Origin: an uncultured Gammaproteobacteria bacterium
GTDB lineage: Bacteria; Patescibacteriota; Microgenomatia; CAZETR01; Amesbacteraceae
Reading direction: 5' to 3'
NCBI GenBank assembly: GCA_964633995.1
Contig: CAZWKN010000001.1
Location: 56,218-120,217 of the forward strand
Length of the DNA stretch: 64,000 bases
Both the position numbers and the translations under genes were made by a program. The notes below the pieces were generated by a model that saw only the letters and a list, made by a program, of their open reading frames with translations, was not told the origin of the DNA and made no database searches. Shown piece after piece: positions 16,206-37,778 of this stretch. Position 1 is the first letter of the stretch. Each line of letters begins with the position of its first letter.

Positions 16206-16247
16206 AGTGCTAAGTGCAAAGTACTAAGTACTAAGGGTTAGGGTTGG
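16206..16247 (+). repeat. Heptamer array: AGTGCTA AGTGCAA AGTACTA AGTACTA AGGGTTA GGGTTGG. It spans the stop codon of the S2P gene.
   Basis: Read directly from the sequence. Confidence 0.7.
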
Positions 16248-16825
16248 CCGATGAGGAGGTTGATGATGAGGTGGGAGATGGGAGAAAGAACTGTGGAGGC
16301 CAGGCCGGTAAAAATCAAAATCATAAGTAGTAGAAAGTGGGTTTGAGAAGGTGCGCCGTAGTGATTGGTAAAGATTTTGGACCCGTCTAATGGAGCGATG
16401 GGAATTAGGTTAAAAAGGGCAAGGTTTACATTGAGACTTATAAGAGAATAAAGGACAGTGCTAAGGGTAAAGGGCAAAGTACTAAGGCGAAAAATCAGAG
16501 AAAGTATAATTGCGAGAAGAAGATTGCTGGCGGGACCGGCTAAAGCAACCAGGCGGACATCTTTTGCGGGGTTTCTGAGATTGTATGGGTCAAACGGGGC
16601 GGGTTTGCCCCAGCCAAAGGTGCCGGTAACTAGCAGAATTAGCGTGCCCATGGGATCCAGGTGGGCTAGGGGGTTTAGGGTAAGCCTGCCCATCGATTCC
16701 GGGGTGGGGTCGCCCAGCCGGTCTGCCATAAAGCAGTGGGCGGCTTCGTGTATGCCTATGGCAATAATTATGCCGCCAAATATAACCACAAAAGCGAAGG
16801 GGTTGGAAAAAAGTAAACCGAGCAT
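16238..16825 (-). CDS. Site-2 protease family zinc metalloprotease (peptidase M50, small SpoIVFB-like)
   Basis: HEAAHCFMADRLGD (HExxH in a TM helix) and a downstream LDG motif; 195 aa polytopic. Confidence 0.7.
   Translation of the reverse strand: MLGLLFSNPFAFVVIFGGIIIAIGIHEAAHCFMADRLGDPTPESMGRLTLNPLAHLDPMGTLILLVTGTFGWGKPAPFDPYNLRNPAKDVRLVALAGPASNLLLAIILSLIFRLSTLPFTLSTVLYSLISLNVNLALFNLIPIAPLDGSKIFTNHYGAPSQTHFLLLMILIFTGLASTVLSPISHLIINLLIGQP
16457..16491 (+). repeat. Heptamer array: AGTGCTA AGGGTAA AGGGCAA AGTACTA AGGCGAA. It lies inside the S2P gene and encodes LSTLPFTLSTV.
   Basis: Read directly from the sequence. Confidence 0.7.
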
Positions 16826-16842
16826 GGGTTTATTCTAACATT

Positions 16843-17619
16843 TTGACAAGTAGGTATAAAATCAAACGTATGGCTGGTGGCGAACGAATAATTACTTCTT
16901 TGTGGGCCAATGTCCCTATTCCGACGGGAGGTAGGATGGACGGGTGGAAGGCTATTCCTATCGCCTCGGAGTTGAGTGCAAACGAGAAACTGATCGATTT
17001 AGCAAAGTTGCCCTCTGGATATGGCATTGTGGTTGAGCCTAAATATTTTCTTGACGGGGTGTCTGGGGCCACTTTTGAGCAAAAACTACGAGAGGAAGCG
17101 GTGGTGAGGTTAGTTAGAGCGGCCAGGCTGGTGGCAAGCGAAGGTTTGAGAATAAAAGTATGGGATGCCCATAGACCACTTGAAACACAGCAGGGTTTAT
17201 TTGATGGTTTTTGGAGAATGCTCTCTGTCGCTAGTCCAAGCTTAAGTTATGAACAGCTGATGGCGCTTACCCAAACATACGTTTCGGTTCCAAGTGAGAA
17301 TATAACTAGGCCGTCTCCACATTTTACTGGGGGACCGGTGGACGTAACATTGGTTGATAGAGCGGGTAGAGAACTAAATATGGGTACCGGTTTTGACCAT
17401 TTTGGCCCCGAAGCGGCAACGGCGTATTTTGAGAATCCACGAAATATTGTGACGTTGAGTGATGTGGAGGCTATGATGAACAGGCGACGGTTATATCATG
17501 CAATGATTGGGGCAGGGTTTTCTAATTATTCTGAAGAATGGTGGCATTTTGATTTTGGAAATCAATTCTACGCCAGAATGACGGGGCGGCAAGCAAAGTA
17601 TGGACCTATCGCAAAATAA
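16843..17619 (+). CDS. D-Ala-D-Ala dipeptidase (VanX-like, peptidase M15D)
   Basis: Zn ligand and catalytic motifs including the SEEWWHFD-like EWWHFD and the HRPLETQ region. Confidence 0.65.
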   Translation: MTSRYKIKRMAGGERIITSLWANVPIPTGGRMDGWKAIPIASELSANEKLIDLAKLPSGYGIVVEPKYFLDGVSGATFEQKLREEAVVRLVRAARLVASEGLRIKVWDAHRPLETQQGLFDGFWRMLSVASPSLSYEQLMALTQTYVSVPSENITRPSPHFTGGPVDVTLVDRAGRELNMGTGFDHFGPEAATAYFENPRNIVTLSDVEAMMNRRRLYHAMIGAGFSNYSEEWWHFDFGNQFYARMTGRQAKYGPIAK

Positions 17620-18574
17620 TATTGACGAAAGATTTAAGCGAGTGACGCTGGGGTTGTCTTGCAGGCGGTTGGTGATTTTGGCGGGGGGTAATTCGTCTGA
17701 GGCCGAAGTGTCAAAAGTTACCGGGAGGCGGGTGCATGAGGTGCTGGAAAAAACTGGACTGGATACTGAATTGGTGGATCCAGATGGTTTTCGTATACTA
17801 GACTGGGAAGCGAAACTGAAAAACGTAGGAATGGTGTTTGTTGCCATGCACGGGGGTTGGGGGGAAAATGGTCAGTTGCAGGGTTTGTTAGATAGGTTTG
17901 GGGTTGTATATACTGGCTCTGGGGTGGAAGGAAGTTGCCTGGGTATGGATAAGCTTGCAAGTAAGAGAATTTGGCAAGCGATTGGTGTAAATACACCAGA
18001 GATTGTAGAGTTCCGAAATTGTAAAAAAACTGTTTTTCCTTTGGTGGTCAAGATAGCTGCCGAGGGATCTGGTAGGGGTGTATTTTTGGTAAAAAAGTTT
18101 GGGGAGTTGGAAAAACTGCTAATCAAATTAAAAGATAAAGAAAATGTGTTTATTGAACGGTATGTTGGAGGTCGGGAAATAAGTTCGATGGTAGTCGAAG
18201 AAAGAGGGGTGTGTGTTGTGTTACCGATTTTGGAAGCAAAGTTTAAACAGGATTTTTTTGATTACGACGCACGTTATCAGAATAAGGGGCACGCCAGAGA
18301 GGTGCCGGCCAGGTTGGCTTTGGGTGTCAGAAAAAAGATCGAGGATGACTCGATTAAAGCGTTTCGAGCCTTAAATTTACGCGATTATGCACGTTTTGAT
18401 ATCCGTTTGGGAAACAATAGCGTGCCGTATTTTTTAGAGGCGACAAGTTTGCCCGGCATGACCACTACAAGTTGGATGCCGGCAATGTTTGAGGCGGCAG
18501 GTGTTGATTTTGAGCATTTGGTAAAGTATTTGGTTTGTTTGGCATGGGAAAGGGGAAAGAATGAAAAAGTATGA
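17600..18574 (+). CDS. ddl: D-alanine--D-alanine ligase
   Basis: ATP-grasp enzyme. N-terminal LAGGNSSEAEVS motif; the LEATSLPGMT C-terminal motif; the omega-loop Tyr is present (DARYQ), indicating D-Ala-D-Ala rather than D-Ala-D-Lac specificity. Confidence 0.8.
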   Translation: MDLSQNNIDERFKRVTLGLSCRRLVILAGGNSSEAEVSKVTGRRVHEVLEKTGLDTELVDPDGFRILDWEAKLKNVGMVFVAMHGGWGENGQLQGLLDRFGVVYTGSGVEGSCLGMDKLASKRIWQAIGVNTPEIVEFRNCKKTVFPLVVKIAAEGSGRGVFLVKKFGELEKLLIKLKDKENVFIERYVGGREISSMVVEERGVCVVLPILEAKFKQDFFDYDARYQNKGHAREVPARLALGVRKKIEDDSIKAFRALNLRDYARFDIRLGNNSVPYFLEATSLPGMTTTSWMPAMFEAAGVDFEHLVKYLVCLAWERGKNEKV

Positions 18575-19349
18575 CTTGAGTAAGCTCGCTTTGGGATATG
18601 AGGCTAAACGGGCTATTCCACTCCAAGTCGAGAATGAGATTGTCCGTTTTGTGAAGAAATGGTTGAGATTTCGGGATGGAAAGTATTGGGATTTGGGTTG
18701 TGGTTCCGGAAGAATAATGGTTCCCTTGGCTAAGAGGTTATCGATGTCAAGGTGGGTGGGGGTGGATGTATCCCCCGAGATGGTAAGTAAATGCCAAGAA
18801 AAAATTGAGGAGGAAGGGTTATCAAAAAGGGTAATGATTAAATGTTTATCAATGGAAGACCCGGGGGTATTTGAGGGCAGTAGTTTGATAGATGGGATGC
18901 TTTTGTATCATTCATTTCATATGGTAAAAAATCGGGTTGAATTGGTGAAAGCAATTTATGACAAGTTGAGAAATGGTGGTCGGGTTGTTGTGGCCAATAC
19001 TACTCATAGTCAGTTGGCAACTACATTAAATTACAAGTGGTTGCCAGAGGTGCTTGAGTGGGAATATTTAAGAACTCCGGACGGCCCCGATGTGATTAAA
19101 GTGTTTCGAGAAAACGGTTTTGATTTGAAAGCAGTGAAGGAGATATGTATTAAAAAAAGCTTTAGATCAATTTCCGAATGGATTGTTTGGCTATCTGGTA
19201 GGCCAATATCCGCTTTGACATTTTGGTCGGATAGTGAACTTAGGGAGAAGCTTGATGAATTAAAACAGAAAGTGATCTTGGAGATGGGAGATCCTGAATT
19301 GGAATATGCTTATGATTTTCATACGTTATATGTGTTTGAAAAAGTATGA
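18561..19349 (+). CDS. Class I SAM-dependent methyltransferase
   Basis: Motif I DLGCGSGR. Confidence 0.6.
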   Translation: MKKYDLSKLALGYEAKRAIPLQVENEIVRFVKKWLRFRDGKYWDLGCGSGRIMVPLAKRLSMSRWVGVDVSPEMVSKCQEKIEEEGLSKRVMIKCLSMEDPGVFEGSSLIDGMLLYHSFHMVKNRVELVKAIYDKLRNGGRVVVANTTHSQLATTLNYKWLPEVLEWEYLRTPDGPDVIKVFRENGFDLKAVKEICIKKSFRSISEWIVWLSGRPISALTFWSDSELREKLDELKQKVILEMGDPELEYAYDFHTLYVFEKV

Positions 19350-19981
19350 TTTTAGAAATTCCAGAAGCTATAAAAAGGGTTCAAGGTGGAGAAATGTTGA
19401 TAGTTGTTGATGATGAAGACCGGGAGAATGAAGGAGATTTGTTTGTGGCGACTGAGAAAATAGATCCGGATAAAGTTAATTTCATGGCTACTTATGGTAA
19501 GGGGTTGATTTGTGTTAGTTTGCCGCAAAGTAGACTGGAGAAGTTAAATATTCCGCCGATGGTTCTGAATAACAGTTCAGTGCATCAGACTGCTTTTCAT
19601 TTGTCGTGTGAAGCTCGACACGGAACAACGACGGGAATTTCGGCTTATGATCGGGCATTGACGATGCAAAAAATAATCGAGGTGGGGGTTACTGGGGACG
19701 ATTTTGTTTTTCCGGGTCACGTTTTTCCTTTAGCTGCAAAAAGAGGTGGGGTTATTGAGCGGACTGGTCACACCGAAGCATCGGCAGATTTTGCTGCGTT
19801 GGCGGGGTGTAAACCTTCTGGAGTGATTGTTGAGATAATGGATGACGATGGAAGGATGGCGCGAATGTCTAAATTGGAGACTATTTCGATTAGGTTTAAT
19901 ATTGGAATTGTAACCATAAAATCCTTGGTCGAGTACAGACGTGCAAAAAATCTTACTGATTCTCTTTACGTCGATTGGTAA
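19346..19981 (+). CDS. ribB: 3,4-dihydroxy-2-butanone 4-phosphate synthase
   Basis: DDEDRENEGDL signature and overall length. Confidence 0.8.
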   Translation: MILEIPEAIKRVQGGEMLIVVDDEDRENEGDLFVATEKIDPDKVNFMATYGKGLICVSLPQSRLEKLNIPPMVLNNSSVHQTAFHLSCEARHGTTTGISAYDRALTMQKIIEVGVTGDDFVFPGHVFPLAAKRGGVIERTGHTEASADFAALAGCKPSGVIVEIMDDDGRMARMSKLETISIRFNIGIVTIKSLVEYRRAKNLTDSLYVDW

Positions 19982-19990
19982 AATACTATT

Positions 19991-20710
19991 GTGCAGAAAG
20001 TAATTGGAGAAATATTGGTTAATTATCAGGTGGTAGGGAGTGGGAAAAAGGATATGGTGGTACTTCATGGTTGGCAGGCAAGCATTGAGGAGTGGAAGAG
20101 GGTGGCTGACAACTTTTCGGAAGATGGCTACCGGGTGTTTCTCATAGATTTGCCCGGGTTTGGAGGAACCAGCCGGGTTCAAAGTGATTGGGGGGCGTAT
20201 GAGTATGCAGATTTTGTGGTGGAGTTTTGTAAAACGATGGGGGTAAAAAATCCGGTGGTAATAGGGCATTCGTTTGGGGGAAGAGTGGCCATTGTTTTGG
20301 CCGGTTTTAAAAAAATAGCCATATCCAGGTTGGTGTTGGTGGATGCGGCTGGAATGGAGATGAAAAGTTTAAAAACCAGAATGGTTAGGGTTTTGGCTCC
20401 GTGGTTCAGATGGTTACCGAAAAATATCAAAAGGATCTTGGGGTCGGCCGATTATAAAAATTCAGGAAACATGATGGAAATATTTAAGAAAGTTATTAAT
20501 CAGCCATTGCGCTACTTGCTGCCGGAGATAAAAGTGCCTACGGTGGTGGTGTGGGGTGAGCGGGATAGTATACTTCCGCTGTCCGAGGCCAAGATGATTC
20601 ATAAGGGTATCTTGGGGTCAGTGTTTCGGATTGTGTGGGGTGCAGGGCATAGTCCGCATGTGGAAAAACTTGATGAGTTTATTCAGATATTAAAGGAAGA
20701 AGGAATATGA
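19991..20710 (+). CDS. Alpha/beta-hydrolase fold protein
   Basis: GHSFGG nucleophile elbow, downstream Asp/His. Confidence 0.6.
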   Translation: MQKVIGEILVNYQVVGSGKKDMVVLHGWQASIEEWKRVADNFSEDGYRVFLIDLPGFGGTSRVQSDWGAYEYADFVVEFCKTMGVKNPVVIGHSFGGRVAIVLAGFKKIAISRLVLVDAAGMEMKSLKTRMVRVLAPWFRWLPKNIKRILGSADYKNSGNMMEIFKKVINQPLRYLLPEIKVPTVVVWGERDSILPLSEAKMIHKGILGSVFRIVWGAGHSPHVEKLDEFIQILKEEGI

Positions 20711-21897
20711 AGAATCTATTACTTTATCTAAACATCTTGCAGATTGAGGAGTATCAGGTCGATCGGTTTATTAGTTGGGTCAAAAGTCATCCCAACCCCA
20801 AGCCTCTGGAGGGTAAAAAACCGATAGTGTGGACATTGAAATTGAAATTAGTGTATTGGTTTAGCTTGGTTGTGTGGCCAGTTACATATTTTTGGCCGTG
20901 GATTGGTTTGGCAATGGGGACGACACTGATACATGTATTTGAGAGATGGGTTTTGGAGTATAGAAAAAAGCAGACCAAATTAAAAATAGCCGGACTAAAA
21001 AAGACGGGACTTAGGGTGGTGGGAATCTCTGGAAGTTTTGGTAAGACCAGCACAAAAGAGGTGTTGTATACATTGCTGCAGGGAAAATACCGCGTTTACA
21101 GGACCCCCGAAAGTTTTAATACGGTAAAAGGAATTGTTAAAGCGGTTGACCTTGAATTAGATGAGGGCTATGAAATATTTATTTGCGAGATGGGGGAATA
21201 CAAACCCGGAGACGTAAAAGAACTGTGTGAGATGGTGGATCCGGATATGGGTATTGTTACCGGCGTAAACGAGCAACATGGAGAAAGGATGGGGGGGGTG
21301 GAGAAAGCCAGGGCTACTGTATTGGAGCTGGCGGATTGGGTGGCTACTAAAAATGGTTTGGTAGTAGTAAATGGCAAAAGTGTAACTGGAACAGGCTATT
21401 TGGAATATGGAAAGAACGTTTACAGGACACCTTTGGAGCAAAATGTCGAAGGGGCTGGGATAGTGGCCGCCAAGCTTGGTATTACACCAAAAGAAATAAA
21501 GGAGCGAACGAAATTAATTAAGCCTGTTAGGCATCGGTTGGAGGTTAAGAAACATGGAGAGTTGACAATATTGGACGATACTTACAATTCAAATCCGGAT
21601 GGGTTTGCTGTTGCAATTACGTATTTGGGGGATTTTTCCGCTCCAAGGGTAGTGGTTACGCCAGGGATAGTGGAACTTGGAAGCGAGAGTGGGCGTGTGC
21701 ATCGGGAATTGGGGACGAAAATGACAGGAGTGGTGGATTTGCTGGTTTTGGTGGGCAAAAACGAGCGGACAGAGGCCCTGGTGAGTACTTTTAAGGGTAA
21801 GTGTGTGTTTGTTTCGAGTGTGAACGAATGGCGCGATGTGGTTTCCCTAGATAAGGGAGCGATTCTTTTTGAAAACGATTTGCCGGACAATTATTAA
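20707..21897 (+). CDS. Mur ligase family protein (MurF-like) with an unusual N-terminal ~100-aa transmembrane region
   Basis: Mur P-loop GISGSFGKTSTKE (compare MurF ITGSNGKTTTKEM); downstream of ddl; two hydrophobic helices at the N-terminus. Confidence 0.55.
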   Translation: MKNLLLYLNILQIEEYQVDRFISWVKSHPNPKPLEGKKPIVWTLKLKLVYWFSLVVWPVTYFWPWIGLAMGTTLIHVFERWVLEYRKKQTKLKIAGLKKTGLRVVGISGSFGKTSTKEVLYTLLQGKYRVYRTPESFNTVKGIVKAVDLELDEGYEIFICEMGEYKPGDVKELCEMVDPDMGIVTGVNEQHGERMGGVEKARATVLELADWVATKNGLVVVNGKSVTGTGYLEYGKNVYRTPLEQNVEGAGIVAAKLGITPKEIKERTKLIKPVRHRLEVKKHGELTILDDTYNSNPDGFAVAITYLGDFSAPRVVVTPGIVELGSESGRVHRELGTKMTGVVDLLVLVGKNERTEALVSTFKGKCVFVSSVNEWRDVVSLDKGAILFENDLPDNY

Positions 21898-21916
21898 ATG
21901 TGTTAAAATCCTTCGC

Positions 21917-22159
21917 ATGGCATATATGTGTGATTATTGCGGTAAGGGTGTGCAGTATGGTGAAACAGGTGTTCACGGGCGTGGTGTGGCGGGTGGAAGG
22001 TGGAAAAAGAGAGCTCAAAAGACCAGGAAAGTGTTTAAGCCGAATTTGCACTATAGAAAAGTAACTATTAAGGGTGAGGCAATTAGGGTTAGGTTGTGCA
22101 CCAAGTGTTTGAGAAAGATCGGGAGTCTGGATGAGAAAAAGTGGGTAGCGGCAGCATAG
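21917..22159 (+). CDS. rpmB: 50S ribosomal protein L28
   Basis: MAYMCDYCGKG...RKVFKPNL...RVRLCTKCLR. The internal Met of track ORF 21869..22159 was chosen by homology. Confidence 0.75.
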   Translation: MAYMCDYCGKGVQYGETGVHGRGVAGGRWKKRAQKTRKVFKPNLHYRKVTIKGEAIRVRLCTKCLRKIGSLDEKKWVAAA

Positions 22160-22225
22160 GATAGTTTTTGTGAAGAGGCGTTCACTGGATTTTGACGGGG
22201 TATAGAGGGAGAATGTGGAATCTGT

Positions 22226-22594
22226 ATGAAGCAGCAGATCAAACAGTTACTTCTAACCCAAAAGGCAACTTTAGAGAAGGCTCTTGAAGGGGCACGGGAG
22301 GCTCAGCTAAGTGCCCCGTCTGCCATGGAGTCTCATTCTGATACAACTAGGTCGGAAAAAGAGAAATTGGTAACTGCATTGGAAGTGGATATAAAAAGGG
22401 TCAGGACTTTGATGCAAAAAATAGATGGTAAAGAGTCTGGTGATAAGTTGTGGGGAGTAAAGACGATTGAGGTTGGAGGAAAGCTACTTCAATGCTGTTT
22501 GGTGCCGTCTGGAATGGGGGGGATGAAAGTTGGCGATTTTCAGCTGGTGTCTGTGGATTCCCCGATGGGAAAAAGATTGTTGGATGAAATATGA
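22226..22594 (+). CDS. GreA/GreB-family-like transcription elongation factor (short)
   Basis: N-terminal coiled-coil and the C-terminal SPMGKRLL motif resembling the GreA ISxxSPxGxALLG. Confidence 0.45.
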   Translation: MKQQIKQLLLTQKATLEKALEGAREAQLSAPSAMESHSDTTRSEKEKLVTALEVDIKRVRTLMQKIDGKESGDKLWGVKTIEVGGKLLQCCLVPSGMGGMKVGDFQLVSVDSPMGKRLLDEI

Positions 22595-22636
22595 GGTGAA
22601 TGTAGATGGGGGGGACGGTTGGTATAAAATAGAGCG

Positions 22637-23323: not shown

Positions 23324-24108
23324 GGTTTGATACGCTGTCCTTTTGGATCGATGCTCCAGATGCCAGGCCAACCTGAAAAGGCTCTAAGTTTTCTTTCAAT
23401 TTCTAAATTCGAAACTCTAAGCTCCAAATAATCCTTTAATTGTTTGTAGTCAATGAAACCGTCCTGGCGGGTGAGCTTGTGGGTGTAAGTCGCAAGACTG
23501 TCGTCTTGCTCTTTTAGTGCTAAGTGCGAAGTGCTAAGTGCTAAGGATAGAAATAGATCTGCTCCAAGTTCAAAGAGGCGATTACCCAACGTGATCCAGG
23601 TGTCGGTGGGCAAGATTGTATCTTTTTGGACGGCCACAATTGGGCCATGGTCCATTTTTTCGTCCATTTGGATAATGGTGACGCCGGTATCGGAAACGCC
23701 ATCTAATATCTGCTGTTGAAGAGGAGAAGCTCCTCTATATTTGGGTAGTAGCGAAGGGTGAATGTTGTAAATATGACCATTAAATTTATCCAAAATTTCT
23801 TTGGGGATTATCTTGCCGTAGGCGGCGACTAAGCCAACTATATCACCCTCTTCGGTTCCCCCTCTTAAATTCTCACTTTCGGCTCGTGCCTTCGTCGTAA
23901 GAGGGGGAAAGGGGGTGATATTTTCAATAACTGGAATGTCATTTTTTTGGGCAAATACTTTGACTGGGTTGGGGGTGAGCCTTAGATGTCTTCCGGCCGG
24001 TTTATCGGAGTTGGTAACAACACTTAGTACTTTGCACTTAGCACTTAGTACTTTCTCAAGGACTATGATGGAAAAGGGGGATGAGCCAAAAAAGACGATA
24101 TCTTGCAT
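23320..24108 (-). CDS. fmt: Methionyl-tRNA formyltransferase
   Basis: N-terminal formyltransferase fold, the HPSLLPKYRG motif, and a C-terminal domain; adjacent to def. Confidence 0.85.
   Translation of the reverse strand: MQDIVFFGSSPFSIIVLEKVLSAKCKVLSVVTNSDKPAGRHLRLTPNPVKVFAQKNDIPVIENITPFPPLTTKARAESENLRGGTEEGDIVGLVAAYGKIIPKEILDKFNGHIYNIHPSLLPKYRGASPLQQQILDGVSDTGVTIIQMDEKMDHGPIVAVQKDTILPTDTWITLGNRLFELGADLFLSLALSTSHLALKEQDDSLATYTHKLTRQDGFIDYKQLKDYLELRVSNLEIERKLRAFSGWPGIWSIDPKGQRIKP
23516..23550 (+). repeat. Heptamer array: AGTGCTA AGTGCGA AGTGCTA AGTGCTA AGGATAG (inside fmt)
   Basis: Read directly from the sequence. Confidence 0.75.
24021..24055 (-). repeat. Heptamer array in the opposite orientation: CACTTAG TACTTTG CACTTAG CACTTAG TACTTTC. 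It lies inside fmt and encodes EKVLSAKCKVLSV.
   Basis: Read directly from the sequence. Confidence 0.75.
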
Positions 24109-24125
24109 GGGAGAATTATACCAAG

Positions 24126-24545
24126 TTAGTCGTCGTCCCCTTCTGGTGGTTTATCTTTCTTTTTCTCCCTTTTGGGTCGGATTCGTTTACTTGCGAACTC
24201 ATCTCGGATGGTCGTTAATCCTTCTAGAAGGTCCTCAACATTGGTAATTTGGTCGTCGATATCCCCAACTTTTTTATCCACGCCTCGATCGTTATCAGAA
24301 ATACTAACATGATTGAATGCGTTTAGGACTAAATATAATGAAGAAAGTGCTACAGCACCGAAGGCGATTAAGTTGGCTGCGTCAAGAGTGGGGGAATCAA
24401 TTCTCATTCCATGTTGGGCGGCTAGATTTTGAAGGCCTGTAGAAATAGCCATTTCCGCAAGACCCAAGACAATTAAGCCAATTGCAACTTTAGTTGGTGT
24501 TGAGAAACCACTTTTTTCAAGTTTTTGATCTGAATCTTTTGTCAT
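24126..24545 (-). CDS. Hypothetical 2-TM protein with an acidic/Lys-rich tail
   Basis: 139-aa ORF. Confidence 0.4.
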   Translation of the reverse strand: MTKDSDQKLEKSGFSTPTKVAIGLIVLGLAEMAISTGLQNLAAQHGMRIDSPTLDAANLIAFGAVALSSLYLVLNAFNHVSISDNDRGVDKKVGDIDDQITNVEDLLEGLTTIRDEFASKRIRPKREKKKDKPPEGDDD

Positions 24546-24550
24546 GTGAT

Positions 24551-25429: not shown

Positions 25430-25461
25430 GCCCTATAGTATACACCTAAAGTAAAAAATGT

Positions 25462-26001: not shown

Positions 26002-26005
26002 GAGC

Positions 26006-27970
26006 CTATTTTAACTGAAGATTTAAAAATTCGGCAGATTCGGATGCATTTGCTGCTTTGAGAGTTAGGTAGTCTTGAAAATATTTTTTGGCTAACACTT
26101 TATCACCAGCGTATTTGGCGATTATTCCCCGGTTGTAAGGAATTTTGGGATCTGTGGGTGAAATTTTGGTTGCACCTACCAATGCTTCGTCTGCTTTGGC
26201 AAAATAGCCTTGGAAATAAGTGGCAAGAACAAGCATGGCCCGGGATTTTGTCTTGTAATAATTAGGATGGTATGGACTTATGCTTATAGCTTTGTTGGCT
26301 GCGGCTTCGGCAATACTTACAAATTTGGCCGAGGTGGTGGCGTCAGTTTCGGCGGTTAGTAAGGCCATGTAAGCTGCTGGCACAGAAAGCTCGGAAATGA
26401 TGGCTGGTTCTTGGGGGTTTAAATTGTAGGCTTGGGAAAGGTGTTGATATGAGGATATGGCGTCTTTGGGGTCCTGGGTTTGGGAAAAGATGCGAAAGTC
26501 TCTTTGGCCTTTGGCAAAGCTGATGTCTGCAGACCAATAAGTAATTATTGCATATAACGTATAGCTTAGCGCAAATAATATTAAGGTGATGGAGAAAATT
26601 TGGGATTTCGATATTACAGATTGCGTATTGCGTATTGCGTATTGCGTATTTAGAGACATCGCAATTGCGGGGAGGAGGAAGAGGAGGATTTGAGTTATGA
26701 CAACCGAAAAACCCCAGAAATTCATGACAGAAATCGATGTCCAGCCGGCCGCTAGTCCGATTATCAAATATTTACAGTCTCGCATGCTCGAACTCCCCCG
26801 CACGGCGGGGTCTCGCTGCGCGTGCTCGCTTTGTAAATATTTGATAAATACAGTTGCCATGAACCCCAATAATAATAGGTATGCTGATAATCCAAACAGG
26901 CCGGTGTTGGCCAAATAATTTAAAAATTCATTGTGAGCTTTGTTGTAAAGAAGCTCCCATTCTGATGTGTAATTGTGTTCAATAGGGCGAAATTGATAGT
27001 AAGACTGCGCAAATGTTTCCGGGCCAGTTCCGAAGATAAAATTCTTGAGGGACGCTTGCCAAATACGTAAGGCGCCTGTCCAGACAATTTTTCTGATATT
27101 GCCGGACTCTGTCCCCCCGCCTTCCAGAACAGGGGTAGATGAAATACCAATTTCTAAATTCGAAGAACCAAATATTTTGTCGCGGATCGGGTTTTTGGTG
27201 ACCAACAGAAGGAGTATGAATATCGTGTTGAGGATCAGGAAGAGTCGGATTTTTTTTGTTTTGAACGTATAGAAGCCCCAAAAGAATACTGAGGAAGTTG
27301 CAAAAGCCAATAACCCTGAACGGGATTTGGTGAAAAGGAGGGTGAGAAAGAAAACAACGCTAATAGCATAGTGCATAATGCCTATAGATCTGTTTTTTGT
27401 TGAAGTAGCGAAAGATATGGGGATGAAGATGAGTGCTACTAGATAACTGGCTAGCCAATTGGGTTGGCCAAGAGTGGAGAAAACCCGGTTTTGGACGTCT
27501 TGAACCCAGGAGGCCGAGTCGATACCAAAGTGTTGCAGAATTCCATATACTGATACGAGTGCTGTAGTGCTAAGGGCTAAGGACAAAGTCCTAAGAGTTG
27601 ATCTCTGATCCATATAGGTGACATAGGCCCAGTAAAGAATGCTGTAGCAAATCAGAGAAAGCAGGCCGCCGTTGAATCTGCTGTAGTAGCCAAAAATGGA
27701 CATGTGGGGGTCGATGGAGAAGAAGAGACTAAGAGATTGAGTGATTAAGAAGATTAAGATGGCCAGATCCAAAATTGTGCGTTGAAAGACGAGTTTTTTT
27801 TGGATAACACTGTCAATGGCCCAGGAGCTGGTAATAATTGCCGTCAGAAAGTAGACGACGATCATTTTGTTGAATTCGAAAAGTTCGGAGGTAAAGGGGA
27901 GAAAGATAAGTGGAGTAATGATAAAAAGCAGATACATGCAGATGCGGATTGTTTTTTGAGGCCAGTGCAT
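26006..27970 (-). CDS. O-antigen ligase (Wzy_C)-like polytopic membrane protein with a C-terminal TPR domain
   Basis: ~10 TM helices, the AHNEFLNYLANTGLFG motif, C-terminal TPR-like repeats. Confidence 0.6.
   Translation of the reverse strand: MHWPQKTIRICMYLLFIITPLIFLPFTSELFEFNKMIVVYFLTAIITSSWAIDSVIQKKLVFQRTILDLAILIFLITQSLSLFFSIDPHMSIFGYYSRFNGGLLSLICYSILYWAYVTYMDQRSTLRTLSLALSTTALVSVYGILQHFGIDSASWVQDVQNRVFSTLGQPNWLASYLVALIFIPISFATSTKNRSIGIMHYAISVVFFLTLLFTKSRSGLLAFATSSVFFWGFYTFKTKKIRLFLILNTIFILLLLVTKNPIRDKIFGSSNLEIGISSTPVLEGGGTESGNIRKIVWTGALRIWQASLKNFIFGTGPETFAQSYYQFRPIEHNYTSEWELLYNKAHNEFLNYLANTGLFGLSAYLLLLGFMATVFIKYLQSEHAQRDPAVRGSSSMRDCKYLIIGLAAGWTSISVMNFWGFSVVITQILLFLLPAIAMSLNTQYAIRNTQSVISKSQIFSITLILFALSYTLYAIITYWSADISFAKGQRDFRIFSQTQDPKDAISSYQHLSQAYNLNPQEPAIISELSVPAAYMALLTAETDATTSAKFVSIAEAAANKAISISPYHPNYYKTKSRAMLVLATYFQGYFAKADEALVGATKISPTDPKIPYNRGIIAKYAGDKVLAKKYFQDYLTLKAANASESAEFLNLQLK
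26620..26654 (+). repeat. Tandem heptamer (ATTGCGT) x4 inside the O-antigen-ligase-like gene (encodes QYAIRNTQ)
   Basis: Read directly from the sequence; a different unit with the same 7-nt period. Confidence 0.8.
27558..27600 (+). repeat. Heptamer array: AGTGCTG tAGTGCTA AGGGCTA AGGACAA AGTCCTA AGAGTTG (inside the ligase-like gene)
   Basis: Read directly from the sequence. Confidence 0.7.
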
Positions 27971-27988
27971 GGTAGTAATTAGTTTAGC

Positions 27989-29142: not shown

Positions 29143-29165
29143 CCCCGTATATTGCGGTTTAGGCT

Positions 29166-30245: not shown

Positions 30246-30248
30246 AAT

Positions 30249-31886: not shown

Positions 31887-31900
31887 TTTGCAATGGGGGT

Positions 31901-32188
31901 TTGAAAAAGAGTAGTATAAGATTAATGGCCGGAGGATTTAGTGTAGAGGAAATTCGAGATGCAATGCAGCAGTTGAGGGATGTGGTGCGGACAAAGAGAG
32001 AAAAGGTGGTTAATATGTGGCAAGATCCGCCACCGCCGGTTATGTTGGCTTATGGGGCTACGGTGCTGGTGTCGGGGGTGTTGATGGCATCAATGGGGAA
32101 TTGGTCAAATTTAAAAATGCCAAGGGGTGGGGGTGGGTTGGAGATTTTAATGGAACTAATGGTTAATTCTGATGGACTAAGTGGATAA
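31901..32188 (+). CDS. Hypothetical protein
   Basis: 95-aa ORF. Confidence 0.3.
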   Translation: MKKSSIRLMAGGFSVEEIRDAMQQLRDVVRTKREKVVNMWQDPPPPVMLAYGATVLVSGVLMASMGNWSNLKMPRGGGGLEILMELMVNSDGLSG

Positions 32189-32546
32189 AGCTATGAAATT
32201 AAAAGAAATAATAGAAATTTTTGTTTTGGGGATGGGTGTAACCGAGGCGTTGGAAGTTAAGGAACTGTTTTTGGAATTGGTTCAATGGAATTTGATTGAG
32301 GCTGTAAATCAAGATTTGACTAGTGAGGATAGGCAGGCGCTGGCTGATATTTTAAAAGGAGGAGAAGCTGGTGGAAGAACATCTCAGGTCACTTCAGTTT
32401 TTTTGCGAGATAAGGGAGTGGATGTATTTAAGGCTAAGAAATATTTAGATTTTGCGGTGAGAGTGGCACTTAGAAAACTACTGGAGATTTTGGGGGGTGG
32501 GTTGGATGTCGAAAACAGGGGTAAAATTGAAGCCGTTTTGGGTTAG
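32181..32546 (+). CDS. Hypothetical protein
   Basis: 121-aa ORF. Confidence 0.35.
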   Translation: MDKAMKLKEIIEIFVLGMGVTEALEVKELFLELVQWNLIEAVNQDLTSEDRQALADILKGGEAGGRTSQVTSVFLRDKGVDVFKAKKYLDFAVRVALRKLLEILGGGLDVENRGKIEAVLG

Positions 32547-32575
32547 TACATCGGGTAAATGATACAATTGCGGAT

Positions 32576-34546
32576 ATGGATTTGATAATTGTAGAGTCGC
32601 CAACCAAGGCCAAAACCCTGTCCAGGTTTTTGGGTAAGGGTTATGAAATTGAAGCTTCTTATGGTCATATAAGAGATCTGCCGCAAAAGAAATTAGGTAT
32701 AGATATGAAATCTAATTTCTTGCCAGAATATGTGCAAACGGATAAGCAGATTAAGAGGACTGAGGAGATTAAGAGATTAAGCAGCAAGGCTAAAACGATA
32801 TATCTGGCAACTGATCCTGACCGGGAGGGTGAGGCAATTGCTTGGCATGTGGGGGAAGTGCTAGGTACTAAGGGCAAAGTACTAAGACGGGTTACGTTTC
32901 ATGAAATTACCAAGAAGGCGATAGAAGAGGCGTTGAAACATCCCGGAGATGTAGACATGAAACTTGTGAATGCGCAGCAGGCAAGGAGAGTGTTGGACAG
33001 ATTGGTTGGATACAAATTGTCTCCATTACTGTGGAGAAAGATTAGAAAGGGATTATCTGCCGGTAGAGTGCAAAGTGTGGCGGTAAGGCTCATTGTAGAT
33101 AAGGAAAGAGAAATTGAAGCCTTTGTTCCCGAAGAGTATTGGGATATAAAAGTAGAGTTGCAAAAGTTGCACAGTTTACCAGTAGAACAGTTAACAGTTA
33201 AGTTGGTAAGTGAAGAAGTTAAGAACGGAGAAGATGCGAGTAGGGTCGAAAACGATCTTAGGGTGGCGGAGTTTGTGGTGGTGGGGGTGGATAAAAAGAA
33301 AGTAACTAGACTGCCGTTGCCGCCGTTTACAACTTCTACCTTGCAGCAGACTGCGGCCAATAAATTGGGTTGGAGTGCGAAAAAGACGATGCAAGTGGCG
33401 CAGAATTTATACGAAGAAGGATTAATAACCTATCACAGGACTGACTCAGTGAATATAGCATCTGAGGCAAGTGCTCAGTGCTCAGCCCTCATAGTTTCCC
33501 AATTTGGAAAAGAGTTTGCGTTGAATACGCCGAGACTATTTAAAACCAAATCTAAGTCGGCTCAGGAGGCGCACGAAGCAATAAGACCGACGGACGTCGG
33601 GCAAATTGCAGATCGCTTATCGCTAATTGCAAATAAGGACCAGGGGCGATTGTATGAACTGATTTGGAAAAGGTTTGTGGCTTGTCAGATGGCAGAGTCC
33701 ATAGGGGAGAGTGTAAAAGTAAAAATTCAAGCAGGAAGATATGGATTGGAGGCCAGAGGATTAACTATTAAGTTTGAAGGATGGCAAAAGGTGTACGGTG
33801 TCGATAAAGAAGAAGATGAGGGGGTGAAGTTGCCGGAGCTAGAATTGCAAGAGAAGTTGGATTGTGTGGATGTTTTGAAAACTCAGAAATTTACCCAACC
33901 GCCAAGTAGATATAATGACGCCAGTCTAATAAAAGCCTTGGAAGAGATGGGTATAGGTCGGCCTAGTACCTATGCGCCGACGTTGTCGACAATTGCTGAA
34001 CGTCAGTATGTAGAAAAAGTGGAGAAAAGGTTTAAACCAACGGCGTTAGGGATTGCGGTGAATGATTTTTTGGTAACTAATTTCGAGAAAATCGTGGATT
34101 ATCAGTTTACTGCCAAAATGGAAGAAGAGTTGGACGAGATAGCTGGTGGTGAAATGGAATGGCAGCCGGTTATCGCCCAGTTTTACGAACCGTTTGAAAA
34201 AGAATTAGACCGGGTACAGGAAGTTTCGGTGAGAGTGAAGGTGGAGGCCGAGTTGACTGGAGATAAGTGCCCTGATTGTACTTCGACGGGCTCAGTACAA
34301 GTTGGTGACGTGGTGGTCAGGATCGGAAAGTTTGGAAGATTTTTGGCATGTAGCCGGTATCCGGAGTGTAAATATAAAGCTAATTACCAACACAAGGTGG
34401 GTGTAAAGTGTCCGAAATGTGGGACAGGTGAAGTGATCATGAAAAAGACCCGTAATATGAAGACGTTTTTTGGTTGTAGCAATTATCCACAATGTGAATA
34501 CGCGAGTTGGAATAAGCCTGTTGTTTCAGCGACGGTAAGTGTGTGA
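32576..34546 (+). CDS. topA: DNA topoisomerase I with C-terminal zinc ribbons
   Basis: Toprim IVESPTKAKT, the active-site Tyr region GLITYHRTDS, and multiple C4 zinc ribbons. Confidence 0.9.
   Translation: MDLIIVESPTKAKTLSRFLGKGYEIEASYGHIRDLPQKKLGIDMKSNFLPEYVQTDKQIKRTEEIKRLSSKAKTIYLATDPDREGEAIAWHVGEVLGTKGKVLRRVTFHEITKKAIEEALKHPGDVDMKLVNAQQARRVLDRLVGYKLSPLLWRKIRKGLSAGRVQSVAVRLIVDKEREIEAFVPEEYWDIKVELQKLHSLPVEQLTVKLVSEEVKNGEDASRVENDLRVAEFVVVGVDKKKVTRLPLPPFTTSTLQQTAANKLGWSAKKTMQVAQNLYEEGLITYHRTDSVNIASEASAQCSALIVSQFGKEFALNTPRLFKTKSKSAQEAHEAIRPTDVGQIADRLSLIANKDQGRLYELIWKRFVACQMAESIGESVKVKIQAGRYGLEARGLTIKFEGWQKVYGVDKEEDEGVKLPELELQEKLDCVDVLKTQKFTQPPSRYNDASLIKALEEMGIGRPSTYAPTLSTIAERQYVEKVEKRFKPTALGIAVNDFLVTNFEKIVDYQFTAKMEEELDEIAGGEMEWQPVIAQFYEPFEKELDRVQEVSVRVKVEAELTGDKCPDCTSTGSVQVGDVVVRIGKFGRFLACSRYPECKYKANYQHKVGVKCPKCGTGEVIMKKTRNMKTFFGCSNYPQCEYASWNKPVVSATVSV
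32857..32891 (+). repeat. Heptamer array: AGTGCTA GGTACTA AGGGCAA AGTACTA AGACGGG. It lies inside topA and encodes EVLGTKGKVLRRV.
   Basis: Read directly from the sequence. Confidence 0.7.
33466..33491 (+). repeat. Heptamer array: AGGCAAG TGCTCAG TGCTCAG CCCTCAT (inside topA)
   Basis: Read directly from the sequence. Confidence 0.6.
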
Positions 34547-34558
34547 TATATTTGAAGC

Positions 34559-35152
34559 ATGAGAGCTAGGGGTTTGTTTGTAGTGTTGTATGGTCCTGAG
34601 GGAGTGGGTAAAAGCAGACAGGCGGGACTTTTGGAAGAGCGATTAAGAGACGAAGGGGTGTTGGTTAGAAGAGTCAGATATCCCGTATATGAAGCCGGAA
34701 AAACGGGAGCGCAATTGGATGAGATGTTGCATAGAAAAAAGATTTCTTTGGATGAAAAGGATATGCAGAAGTTGTTTGCGAAAAACAGGAAAGAATTTGA
34801 ACCTACCTTGAAGGCCTGGCTTAACTCAGGGATGACAGTGATTGCCGAAGGTTACAAGGGGACCGGGATTGTGTGGGGGGTGACCAGAGGGCTAACTGTC
34901 GAGCAGATGGATGAGATAAACGAGGATACTTTGGATCCTGATTTGTCTATATATATTGATGGACCAATGAGAACAGAAATGGCCGATCCGGCCCATCCGT
35001 ATGGGGATGAAGAAGAATGGTACCAGCTGAGAAAGACATATTTTCAAATGGCAGATAGGTATGGATGGATTAGGGTGGGTGGAGATGCGCCGATACTAAC
35101 GGTGGCTTCCAGGATTTGGGCTGTGGTTAAACCAGTTGTGGGATCGAGGTGA
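34559..35152 (+). CDS. Thymidylate-kinase-like P-loop kinase
   Basis: VVLYGPEGVGKSRQ Walker A and small-kinase size. Confidence 0.5.
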   Translation: MRARGLFVVLYGPEGVGKSRQAGLLEERLRDEGVLVRRVRYPVYEAGKTGAQLDEMLHRKKISLDEKDMQKLFAKNRKEFEPTLKAWLNSGMTVIAEGYKGTGIVWGVTRGLTVEQMDEINEDTLDPDLSIYIDGPMRTEMADPAHPYGDEEEWYQLRKTYFQMADRYGWIRVGGDAPILTVASRIWAVVKPVVGSR

Positions 35153-35370
35153 CTGAGTGCGAAAAATCTAGGTTTGTTTGTTGGCTTGATAAGCCGGATG
35201 GGGATTACGAATCGGCTGTGTGTTTGGTGTGTCAGGCGGCTGTGAGGATAGCTATGCAGGGAGGCCGTGCCGTTATGACAAATGAAATGTGTGTGGGGCA
35301 TAGAAAAAAGTGTATGCAAGTGTGGCTTCTGACCGTAAAATCCGCCCTCGAACGGGAAGGAAGAGTGTAA
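35149..35370 (+). CDS. Hypothetical small Cys-containing protein
   Basis: 73-aa ORF. Confidence 0.25.
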   Translation: MTECEKSRFVCWLDKPDGDYESAVCLVCQAAVRIAMQGGRAVMTNEMCVGHRKKCMQVWLLTVKSALEREGRV

Positions 35371-35398
35371 AAGGCTTGGGTGTGGTATATTTGGCGGG

Positions 35399-36583
35399 AT
35401 GGCAAAAGTGGAAGAAGAGTTGGCTGAAATTACCTGCGGCGTTGGAGCTGAAAATATGGGTAGGTATCGGGACTTGAGGTGTTTGGGAAGTTCAGTGTTG
35501 GCTATCGCAAACCAGGTCGATGGAGGTAGTGGTTCGATGGGTAATTTCTTTGCCGAACAGGATGTTTTAAGTAGATTTGGAAGAAGTATTGGCAGGAGTG
35601 ATCCTTTGTCCAGGGCAGTATTGGTATCTATGGTTGCTGCCCAAAAGGGTAGGGTATTGGGTGGGAGTAGGGCTTGGCAATTGTTGACGAATTGGTTTGA
35701 CAGGTCGACGGCAGGATTTTTGTTGGAAGCAAAAGAAATGTTGGATGAAGTAAAACCCAGAATGAGTGGAGCGTTTACTCGCGTATCAGAAACTCAGTTG
35801 AGAGATACTAGTGAATCTTTATTACGATCACCAGTAAAAACAGAGCTTTTAGCTGTGTTGGGTCTGAACGGTTGTGGAAAATCGACAATGGTTGGGGCAT
35901 TAGTAGAATTTGGAATAAGATTGGGCATAGGGGTATCAACGGTAAAGTTTCCTCGGGATGGTGAAGTGGGTACGGTTATAAAGAAGCGATTATCTGGAGG
36001 GACGTCGCTAGACGGAGCAGCATTTCAGATGTTATTTTTGGCCGATTTATTTGATTATTTAGCTAATATTGATCTGAGTAGGCCTTTATGTGTGGCAGAT
36101 CGACTAGCGATGTATGATGGACAAGTATATAGTCCTGAAGTTACTCGCTTGTTGAGCTTGTACGCAATGGAAGCGTTGGATTTGCCGGTTACTGCGCTAG
36201 TTGTTGATAGACATCCGGGATTGTGTCACGAAAGAGTTTTGAAAAGGGAAAATAAACCGCGAGTGTTTGAACAAGGTGTGAAGCAAATGGCGCTGCAGCA
36301 AGTTGAGTTTTGGCGATTGTTGGGTTTGCCTGGGGTGCATTTGTTGAATGTGGATGTAGCTGATCCGTCTGCCGAAGGTCAGGTGGCTTGGGCAAAATAT
36401 AATGTTGTTAACTCTGCGGCAAGAGCAGGAGTTTGGCAGAGGGCGTTGATGCGATCCGGTATGGCAGGCAATTTGTCAACGGCTGATGGGATGGTGTTTG
36501 ACCAGGTGCACGGATATTTTATGGATATGATGTTTGGACCGGATGGAAATTATTTGTACGGAAGCGATGCGCAAGAGGTATAA
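35399..36583 (+). CDS. P-loop protein with a thymidylate-kinase-like core and a ~130-aa N-terminal extension
   Basis: LGLNGCGKST Walker A and a DRLAMYDGQVYS region resembling the Tmk DRY...AYQ motif. Confidence 0.4.
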   Translation: MAKVEEELAEITCGVGAENMGRYRDLRCLGSSVLAIANQVDGGSGSMGNFFAEQDVLSRFGRSIGRSDPLSRAVLVSMVAAQKGRVLGGSRAWQLLTNWFDRSTAGFLLEAKEMLDEVKPRMSGAFTRVSETQLRDTSESLLRSPVKTELLAVLGLNGCGKSTMVGALVEFGIRLGIGVSTVKFPRDGEVGTVIKKRLSGGTSLDGAAFQMLFLADLFDYLANIDLSRPLCVADRLAMYDGQVYSPEVTRLLSLYAMEALDLPVTALVVDRHPGLCHERVLKRENKPRVFEQGVKQMALQQVEFWRLLGLPGVHLLNVDVADPSAEGQVAWAKYNVVNSAARAGVWQRALMRSGMAGNLSTADGMVFDQVHGYFMDMMFGPDGNYLYGSDAQEV

Positions 36584-36590
36584 TTTTGCA

Positions 36591-37778
36591 ATGGACGACG
36601 TGGTGTTTGGGTTGATTGAAAAAGAACAGCGAAGACAGGGGGAGACGCTGGCTATGATTCCTTCTGAAAATTATGTTAGCAAACAAGTGCTCAGGGCTCA
36701 GGGTTCAGGGCTTGGTAACAAATACTCTGAAGGGTATCCCGGAAGACGGTATTATCAGGGTAATAAAATAATTGATGAAATCGAGAATTTAGCCATAGAA
36801 CGAGCTAAAAAGTTGTTCAATGTGGATTATGTAAATGTCCAACCCTATTCGGGTAGTCCGGCGAATTCGGCAGTGCTGATGGCTCTTTTGGAACCCGGAG
36901 ACAAAATAATGGGTTTGAAATTGTCAGGCGGCGGACACCTGACACATGGGCACCCTAAAGTAACTTTTTCAGGAAAATTTTTTAATTCGGTGCAGTATGA
37001 TGTAAATTCTGATGGGTGGATTGACTATGATGAGGTAGAAAAATTGGCGAAAGCAGAAAAACCCAAATTAATGATAATTGGAACGACTGCGTATCCTAGA
37101 ATATTTGATTTTAAGAGATTTAAGGAAATCGCGGATGGGGTGGGTGCAAAGGTTTTGGCTGATATTTCTCATATTGCGGGACTTGTGGTGGGTGGAGTGC
37201 ACCCTAGCCCGGTAGGGTTTGCCGATGTAATTACCACCACAACCCATAAGACTTTACGGGGGCCGAGGGGGGCGATGATTATGACAAATGACGTTGAACT
37301 GGCGAAAAAAATTGACAAAGCAGTGTTTCCCGGACTGCAGGGTGGACCACACAATAATACGACGGCGGCGATTGCTGTTTGCTTGGGTGAAGCCGCAACG
37401 CCAGAATTTACATACTATGCAAAGCAGGTGGTAAATAATGCGAAGGCTTTGAGTGAAGAACTCGTGAAACTTGGGTTTAAATTGACTACGGGTGGGACGG
37501 ATAATCATTTGATGGTTATCAATTTGGGTGGTGGAGGTAAGGATGCGGCTGAGGATTTGGAAAGGTCGGGAATAATTGTAAATTATAATACCGTGCCGCA
37601 TGATCCCAACCCCCCCGCTAATCCATCGGGAATCCGACTAGGAACTCCGGCTTTGACTACCAGGGGGATGAAGGAAGGCGAGATGAGAGACATCGCCCAG
37701 ATGATATTTGAGGTGATTAAAAACAAGAAACAGGTTAGTGTGTTGGAGTTGTGCAGAAAATTTCCATATGATTTTTGA
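36591..37778 (+). CDS. glyA: Serine hydroxymethyltransferase
   Basis: The PLP-site TTTTHKTLRGPRG and the N-terminal SENYVS...AQGS...NKYSEGYPG region. The start was moved to the ATG at 36591 by homology with E. coli GlyA. Confidence 0.9.
   Translation: MDDVVFGLIEKEQRRQGETLAMIPSENYVSKQVLRAQGSGLGNKYSEGYPGRRYYQGNKIIDEIENLAIERAKKLFNVDYVNVQPYSGSPANSAVLMALLEPGDKIMGLKLSGGGHLTHGHPKVTFSGKFFNSVQYDVNSDGWIDYDEVEKLAKAEKPKLMIIGTTAYPRIFDFKRFKEIADGVGAKVLADISHIAGLVVGGVHPSPVGFADVITTTTHKTLRGPRGAMIMTNDVELAKKIDKAVFPGLQGGPHNNTTAAIAVCLGEAATPEFTYYAKQVVNNAKALSEELVKLGFKLTTGGTDNHLMVINLGGGGKDAAEDLERSGIIVNYNTVPHDPNPPANPSGIRLGTPALTTRGMKEGEMRDIAQMIFEVIKNKKQVSVLELCRKFPYDF
36686..36713 (+). repeat. Heptamer array: AGTGCTC AGGGCTC AGGGTTC AGGGCTT. 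It lies inside glyA and encodes the conserved VLRAQGSGL.
   Basis: Read directly from the sequence. Confidence 0.6.

Follow-up and report, generated by a model that had tools for sequence, protein, structure and literature searches.

We found that a 64-kb stretch of DNA (hereafter the window; all coordinates are window positions unless a locus is named), which comes from an Amesbacteria-like genome (Microgenomates), carries short, degenerate tandem arrays of 7-nucleotide (nt) units embedded in its conserved genes. These arrays belong to a known class of repeats, the heptanucleotide simple-sequence repeats, and not to a new class; their location inside genes, their recurrence at the same protein hot spots and their variability between strains are, as far as we could find, undescribed. 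We hold with moderate confidence that they are best explained by errors in a 7-nt register, together with local copying and short-patch recombination, all filtered by selection.

A preliminary description of this DNA had listed 12 loci as a dispersed family of degenerate heptamers inside conserved genes. All 12 are present at their listed coordinates, and the family is real. Tandem Repeats Finder called period 7 at 10 of them, and the two that it did not call (16457 and 32857) are members of an independently found six-copy family of 31-nt direct repeats; the faintest of the 12 are those at 33466, 30965 and 36686. A run detector (score at least 12, periods 4−12) found eight strong arrays at period 7 in the window and none or one at any other period. 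An autocorrelation scan (24-nt span, threshold 17, periods 4−15) found 14 arrays at period 7, as compared with 0.28 in locally shuffled sequence (an approximately 50-fold excess) and 0−5 at every other period. When synonymous codons were shuffled with all proteins kept, 2.7 arrays remained, and 2.1 remained when codon order was shuffled within genes; two of these are in each case the intergenic arrays, which were left unshuffled. The randomisation that had been proposed for this DNA, run here on the window, therefore leaves the arrays far above both shuffled and codon-preserving controls. Because codon shuffles erase the arrays, the periodicity is a property of the DNA and not of the proteins or of codon usage, and the earlier statement that this is not codon repetition holds.

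These controls bear directly on a rival idea, in which amino-acid or codon composition, chance or misassembly gives rise to the periodicity; we now consider it barely credible. A few loci are indeed faint (33466, 30965), and the glyA locus covers a conserved SHMT motif whose usual coding sequence is already near-periodic; the native AQGS-coding sequence may have served as the seed of this array. Composition does not account, however, for the collapse of the arrays in protein- and codon-preserving shuffles, nor for the scarcity of arrays at other periods. An assembly artefact had been raised as a possible source of the arrays, yet over 22408−25108, a segment spanning three arrays in fmt, the window and the independent Logan assembly of run SRR8893623 agree at 100% identity, and separately assembled relatives carry arrays at the same protein sites. 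Chance, codon usage, protein composition and misassembly are ruled out by the shuffles and the SRR8893623 assembly.

The arrays of the window are given below. Pfam agrees with the genes first assigned to the 12 loci (M50, Formyl_trans_N, Pep_deformylase, Wzy_C, PBP transpeptidase, Topoisom_bac and SHMT), and 11 of these loci lie inside open reading frames (ORFs), as had been stated, the exception being 16206. The range 16206−36713 proved not to be the limit of the arrays, as more were found at 12747, 23393, 33599, 37920, 45583, 50818 and 56368; those at 23393 and 33599 were absent from the original list. Arrows give the codon change at the position of a would-be stop, and aa stands for amino acids.

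12747−12781, + strand: AAATYCT-type array, intergenic, upstream of a terminator-like hairpin (12811−12846)
16206−16236, + strand: AGTGCTA-family array of 4 units + AG, intergenic, beginning 2 nt 3' of the stop codon of the M50 protease gene (16238−16825, minus strand)
16457−16487, + strand: AGTGCTA-family array in the M50 (S2P) gene; antisense reading LSTLPFTLST; TAG → TTG
23393−23429, − strand: TTAGAGN/TTAGAAA-type array, fmt site 3 (aa ~228−240); peptide LELRVSNLEIER
23516−23546, + strand: AGTGCTA-family array, fmt site 2 (aa ~189−198); antisense reading LALSTSHLA; TAG → TCG
24021−24053, − strand: AGTGCTA-family array, fmt site 1 (aa ~19−30); sense reading VLSAKCKVL; TAA → AAA
25612−25642, + strand: AGTGCTA-family array in def; peptide LSTSPLTLSP
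26620−26650, + strand: perfect (ATTGCGT)x4.4 array in the Wzy_C/O-antigen-ligase-like gene, immediately after the conserved LLPAIA motif and in an orientation without stops; peptide NTQYAIRNTQ
27558−27596, + strand: AGTGCTA-family array in the Wzy_C-like gene; peptide LRTLSLALST
30965−30995, + strand: AGTGCTC-type degenerate array in mrdA; peptide SAQYARLSAQ
31517−31550, + strand: CTCA(A/G)TG array (the AGTGCTC family) of 4.9 units in mrdA; peptide SMLSAQCSMLN
32857−32887, + strand: AGTGCTA-family array in topA, in the loop following the Toprim DxDxEGE motif; peptide VLGTKGKVL; TAA → AAA
33466−33490, + strand: short AGTGCTC array in topA, the weakest locus, with 2.3 perfect units and one degenerate; peptide SAQCSAL
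33599−33636, + strand: ATYGCNW-family array in topA (aa ~348), of the same family as 26620 and 45346
36686−36713, + strand: AGTGCTC/AGGGCTC array in glyA, covering the conserved SHMT segment VLRAQGSGL
37920−37963, + strand: AAATCTA/AAGTCGA-type array in folD
45346−45376: ATYGCNW-family copy
45583−45631, + strand: CAAGAAA array in queA
50818−50860, + strand: AATTGAC/AATGGAC array in ORF 50347−50952
56368−56416, + strand: AATGGAC/AATTGAC array of 4.9 units at the 5' end of a HAD-hydrolase gene

The units fall into families. The AGTRCTA family comprises seven loci, six on the + strand and one reversed, and the AGTGCTC family, whose unit is one base away, comprises four. The ATYGCNW family has three to four loci (including 26620, 33599 and 45346) and the AATKGAC family two (50818 and 56368), and the window also has a group of A/T-rich CTAAATY units. 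Two AGTGCTA arrays, those at 16206 and 24021, have an identical block of 23 nt in common. All loci of the AGTRCTA/AGTGCTC family fall within 20.5 kb of the window, which is improbable both under a uniform null (P = 7.5e-5) and on label permutation (P = 0.0016), and an identical consensus unit is found in 7.1% of within-genome array pairs as compared with 0.31% of between-genome pairs, a 23-fold difference.

Since 7 and 3 have no common factor, every reading frame of a perfect array cycles through the same seven codons. For AGTGCTA these are V-L-S-A-K-C-stop in sense and L-S-T-stop-H-L-A in antisense. In each of the six in-ORF AGTGCTA arrays, of which two are read in sense and four in antisense relative to transcription, the perfect version would place exactly one stop in the used frame, and in all six the would-be stop codon carries exactly one substitution (TAG → TTG or TCG; TAA → AAA). 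Mismatches are about 3-fold denser in the would-be stops than elsewhere (6/18 versus 35/294, P = 0.02), and all AGTGCTC and ATTGCGT arrays lie in a stop-free orientation. It had been proposed that the degeneracy of the arrays keeps the frames open and that the arrays are edited by selection; the single substitution in each would-be stop and the stop-free orientations support both statements.

The window MreB is 84%, 83% and 78% identical to those of Candidatus Amesbacteria genomes, with gene order kept; no close strain of the window genome is present in the collections, the next fmt being 70% identical. An excess at period 7 is also seen in related genomes (L001−L003, L201, L011, L012, L016, L017 and L020, where L-numbers denote the loci of other genomes that were compared), and the heptamer arrays are a trait of the whole lineage, in Amesbacteria as in other Microgenomates genomes. 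A fainter and mostly intergenic excess was seen in Omnitrophota, Planctomycetia, Chloroflexota and Bacillota loci. In the window 12/14 arrays lie in long ORFs (0.86 for random segments), and 18/20 do so in the Amesbacteria loci (0.77 for random segments); most arrays are inside genes because the genome is ~89% coding. Arrays of the other phyla are depleted in long ORFs (35/78, as compared with 0.91 for random segments). In loci of Chloroflexota, Nitrospinota, Planctomycetia and Omnitrophota the heptamer arrays often form adjacent inverted pairs, mostly intergenic, which would fold into long hairpins built from repeats (L066 299−380, L038 19432−19518, L055 342−424 and L027 15195−15274).

Arrays of different genomes recur at the same places in the proteins. 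We counted 72 cross-genome array pairs lying at most 8 aa apart, where 17.4 were expected and the maximum in 2000 permutations was 37, and the coinciding arrays usually have different units in different genomes. No arrays were found in MreB and GalU in this comparison. The shared sites are:

fmt: aa 24, 191−199 and 233
def: aa 123−125
Wzy_C: aa 124−131, 189−205, 240−252, 444−447 and 468−471
mrdA: aa 244, 428−437 and 464−467
topA: aa 68−70, 98−103, 199−205 and 344−348

At the mrdA aa-244 site (30965) the unit is AGTGCTC in the window and AGTACTA in L001; the site of the M50 array holds a TAGAGAA array at the same protein position in L001; and the loop following the topA Toprim motif holds CAAATCC/CAAAATT-type arrays in L001, L012, L016 and L020. 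The fmt site-2 array of the window, its TCG repair included, is common to L204 and L201, with 84−89% nt identity in the array and 69−72% in the remainder of fmt; some arrays, such as this one and that at mrdA aa 244, have clearly been inherited. The AGTGCTA unit itself is not specific to the window genome, as perfect arrays of it spanning 25−316 nt occur in more than 120 metagenome contigs of 32−74% GC, and this range of lengths is the ordinary behaviour of a length-unstable repeat; no special status can be claimed for AGTGCTA, since no control unit was searched. Other contigs resembling the Candidate Phyla Radiation (CPR) also hold degenerate copies that are in frame, for example in a gene for an Fpg-like protein.

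The comparison of orthologs and strains that had been suggested for the arrays shows that close relatives differ at array sites. Across ~110 Fmt homologs, the three sites hold a limited set of array-encoded cassettes in mosaic combinations (for example LALSTSHLAL; ENYLKIENCELKI and its reverse-strand reading SQFSIFNQIP; LEPKTYHLEPQ), and the same cassette family is found at different sites in different genomes. Two pairs of close relatives differ in this way. L208 and L209 are 98.6% identical upstream and diverge from fmt site 2 on, where the same two positions differ in all four units of the array (TTGAAAA versus TTTCAAA). The first of these units contains a stop and the second does not, and the difference is a concerted change of the unit. 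L210 and L211 are 99.4−99.7% identical over 9.6 kb and have only two divergent patches, both at array hot spots: a replaced tract of 185 nt that has fmt site 2 at its centre and holds a hairpin cassette in one strain but an AATTTTC array in its partner, and a 24-nt indel right after the LLPAIA motif of Wzy_C, the site of the perfect ATTGCGT array of the window. The density of differences is ~4-fold higher in arrays than outside them. Recent insertion was considered for the presence or absence of arrays among Fmt proteins of ~90% identity and was rejected, as the DNA shows recombination tracts from diverged alleles. The hot spot that follows LLPAIA is also the exact point at which, in L210 (3537−3620) and L211, the Wzy_C domain parts from the TPR part, each being an ORF of its own; in the window (26600−26660) the two are joined in a single ORF of 654 aa. 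In L201 (6854−7388) def is split by a frameshift at FSGFPAHIIQHE, being either a pseudogene or an assembly error; we rejected it as a slippage event, as FSGFPAHIIQHE is distant from any array.

The preliminary description had assigned the arrays to no described class of element. They share, however, most of the defining features of the long simple-sequence repeats (LSSRs) and short tandemly repeated repetitive (STRR) sequences with heptameric units: the units stand head to tail in at least three copies (Tandem Repeats Finder, the run detector and autocorrelation agree), they exceed both chance and other unit lengths, and they form genome-specific dispersed families of units, whereas the location is not predominantly intergenic. 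According to the survey of Mrazek, Guo & Shah (2007), as cited in PMC4679880 and PMC4692102, heptanucleotides are the most abundant LSSRs in most repeat-rich bacterial genomes, and their excess was ascribed to slippage tied to the polymerase footprint. As cited there, the survey did not include the CPR. The repeats that it describes resemble ours in that 7-nt units exceed other lengths and are scattered over phyla. Units that are not multiples of three were rare in coding sequence in that survey, as it is summarised in these papers, whereas here 86−90% of the arrays are in ORFs of essential genes, and the arrays of the window are short (4−5 units), degenerate and in frame.

Dispersed heptamer families are also known from the STRR of heterocystous cyanobacteria, GGGAATC of Xanthomonas and GGGGA(T/C)T of Nostoc (PMC4692102). 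Like our arrays, these are genome-specific and occur at many loci on both strands; their length and sequence vary among close relatives; and they often abut or overlap stop codons, as the array at 16206 does. They are overwhelmingly intergenic and often long and perfect, whereas the arrays of the window lie within protein-coding sequence. Some of these known repeats are rich in G and fold into quadruplexes, whereas the window units are not G-tracts. The TAACTGA direct repeats of marine Beggiatoaceae (169 sets, mostly just upstream of start codons) contain stops in all three frames in one direction, and their few intragenic copies lie in the stop-free orientation at places that the protein tolerates (PMC4679880). 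Those copies stand at protein ends, whereas the window arrays occupy internal loops and structured segments of conserved enzymes and, unlike TAACTGA, have stop-containing units repaired by point substitutions. Contingency repeats, such as the heptanucleotide tract of Haemophilus influenzae HMW1A, are likewise gene-associated short tandem repeats with units that include 7 nt, yet such tracts are perfect and long and switch surface genes by frameshift or promoter spacing (PMC8262952). The arrays of the window are degenerate, lie inside essential housekeeping genes (fmt, def, topA, mrdA, glyA and folD), where frameshifts would be lethal, and keep the frames open, and an interpretation as phase-variable contingency loci was rejected. 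We found no literature linking heptanucleotide repeats to the CPR.

According to the explanation that we favour, replication errors in a 7-base register, either slipped-strand mispairing or short template switches, would give rise to short tandem heptamers and make their units uniform. The arrays remain at a restricted number of protein positions that tolerate them, as their recurrence at shared sites shows, and their stops are removed either by single substitutions, as seen in the six AGTGCTA arrays, or by a concerted shift to a stop-free unit (AGTGCTA → AGTGCTC; TTGAAAA → TTTCAAA). Copying between nearby sites would produce the local families of the same unit that are evident in the window. 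Short-patch recombination, which can be seen in the two strain pairs, exchanges arrays between lineages, and because of this exchange the array sites change faster than any other part of genes that are otherwise conserved. The explanation calls for no dedicated function, and the arrays probably have none.

Several observations weigh against this explanation. Of the six in-ORF AGTGCTA arrays only that of def lengthens its protein, the loop being ~7 aa longer than in array-free orthologs, and the other five (M50, fmt twice, Wzy_C and topA) cover segments of unchanged length; the Wzy_C-like segment at 27558 is as long as in 17 orthologs, and the glyA array likewise makes no length difference. In the AlphaFold model of Fmt, site 1 forms a helix end, a turn and a strand with a predicted local distance difference test score (pLDDT) above 90; site 2 is a helix end and linker with pLDDT of about 50, and site 3 a helix-loop-helix. 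The arrays thus mostly overwrite rather than insert, and simple expansion is inadequate because most AGTGCTA arrays leave the length of the segment unchanged, even in a structured site. Among the ~110 Fmt homologs the loop lengths at site 3 differ by 2, 4, 5, 6, 8 and 11 aa; these are not multiples of 7 aa, as the gain of three units at a time (21 nt, in frame) would require, and such expansion was rejected. No polymorphism in unit number (+/−7 or 21 nt) was seen directly among the compared sequences, and the strain differences that we observed are recombination tracts and not slippage events. After the arrays (3.7% of the window) are masked, no residual period-7 autocorrelation is left; the signal being restricted to discrete arrays, a diffuse genome-wide 7-nt templated mutational bias was rejected. 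All seven AGTGCTA copies have the same phase and an apparent extent of 4 units + AG (30 nt), and the fmt site-2 array is 89% identical to that of L204, as compared with 69% nt identity for the rest of fmt.

The uniform copies raise the possibility that the AGTGCTA loci are copies of a mobile mini-element of ~30 nt (10 codons), pasted in frame by dedicated machinery. Such an element would be likened to Rickettsia palindromic elements or to the small dispersed repeats of cyanobacteria, which are small repeated DNA segments lying in frame within conserved protein genes without destroying them. Along with phase and extent, the 23-nt block common to 16206 and 24021, the local clustering of copies, and the mosaic fmt cassettes, with one family at different sites in different genomes, would all fit such an element, and the same genomes hold a clearly mobile in-frame hairpin element (95% identity over 63 nt between the window fmt and L001 def). 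Yet the Rickettsia and cyanobacterial elements are of unique or palindromic sequence and lengthen the protein, whereas the heptamer arrays are direct tandem repeats and mostly length-neutral, one in-ORF copy in six (def) adding ~7 aa; it is the hairpin elements in fmt, folD and L001 def that come closer to these known elements. Target duplications and conserved flanks were not seen at the seven copies, and several copies are inherited rather than recent insertions, because they are orthologous to arrays in species only 60−70% identical in protein. AGTGCTA forms arrays of any length elsewhere, and the uniform extent of 4 units may reflect the detection threshold and protein tolerance. A scan of 20 window ORFs revealed neither a transposase nor a reverse transcriptase, nor the templating locus suggested in the preliminary description. 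A diversity-generating retroelement variable region does not fit either, as the differences among copies are not adenine-specific and consist of T → A/G at the stop position and G/A at unit position 4. We consider a mobile mini-element unlikely.

It was also considered that the arrays are selected cis-acting signals, phased 7-nt sites in double-stranded DNA or RNA for a genome-specific binding protein such as a cold-shock or S1-like RNA binder or a nucleoid protein, placed in genes because intergenic space is scarce. The periodicity is kept at orthologous sites over deep divergence, with synonymous codons chosen so that the period is kept; the unit families are genome-specific; the fmt site-2 array is better conserved between species than other parts of fmt; and MacGregor suggested binding proteins for the TAACTGA repeats. 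A signal of this kind is hard to reconcile, however, with an AGTGCTA unit that is read both ways relative to transcription, with unrelated units or reversed orientation at orthologous sites of different genomes, with the absence of a fixed position relative to gene starts or ends, and with array sites being the most variable gene parts between strains. A leading-strand bias in orientation (10/11 on the + strand) was rejected as well, not being significant when GC skew is allowed for (P = 0.069). We rate this possibility as quite improbable. More doubtful still, in our judgement, is that the arrays are the footprint of an active local patch-copying process, by templated gap repair or gene conversion from periodic or hairpin DNA, that rewrites sites in essential genes and promotes short-patch exchange between lineages. 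If true, a group with minimal genomes would possess an inbuilt source of diversity in its protein loops, and active copying would be a new route to protein diversification.

The arrays show that essential genes can be widely colonised by repeats whose unit length is not divisible by three, where intergenic space is scarce and selection edits the repeats. They provide a concrete origin for part of the loop insertions specific to single lineages, and of the unusual Leu/Ser/Thr/Ala/Lys patches, that CPR proteins have, and such patches can mislead alignments, phylogenies and domain annotation. As the places where near-identical strains differ, array sites are ready strain markers and possible recombination hot spots.

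Further observations concern the arrays and their surroundings. The two AGTGCTA arrays of fmt (23516−23540 and 24021−24045) stand in inverted orientation with 480 nt between them, and a stretch of 25 nt shows 92% complementarity; pairing within the fmt mRNA, or an inversion or deletion of the DNA, could result. After period 7, the strongest enrichment is at period 8, both in the window (five arrays at threshold 17) and in L001 and L201; in the window there are AAGAGATT-type units at 27723−27759, 32743−32781, 45462−45489 and 47915−47949, three of these four loci being of one family. The GC skew of the window is extreme and uniform (+0.17 to +0.44 in each 2-kb bin) and ~50 of its 66 genes are on the + strand; a similar strand disparity is known from a Microgenomates genome (PMC7143001).

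The in-frame hairpin element of fmt (23856−23920, minus strand) has the stem TTCCCCCTCTTA/TAAGAGGGGGAA with a 30-nt loop and encodes the peptide ITPFPPLTTKARAESENLRGGTEEGDI, whose pLDDT is below 50. Its match in L001 lies in a different gene, def, at 5078−5140, although orthologous genes of the two genomes are only ~70% identical, and L202 (975−1039) and L203 carry it minus its central ~26 nt. These features suggest a small, mobile palindromic element with in-frame insertion, as is known for Rickettsia palindromic elements. The 26-nt sequence TCCCTCTCCTGAATTCAGGAGAGGGA, a perfect palindrome, has two copies with extended matching flanks, one in folD (38160−38215), in frame and encoding SPLHPSPEFRRGNEGE, and one intergenic (51990−52030); L001 3217−3239 is listed alongside them. 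Cassettes related to the folD palindrome (SPLPFPSLSQREG) occupy fmt site 2 in many Amesbacteria. Another intergenic perfect palindrome of 26 nt, TCGCCTGCCTGCCGGCAGGCAGGCGA (52093−52118), adjoins the second copy of the folD type.

The large ORFs 57709−59910, 39958−41271 and 361−1650 have no Pfam match. ORF 38534−39946 (470 aa) has a GGDEF domain and a weak match to a Cas10/Cmr2 palm domain, and a fourth tRNA, missed by ARAGORN, lies at 15895−15966 on the minus strand (Rfam, 50.3 bits).

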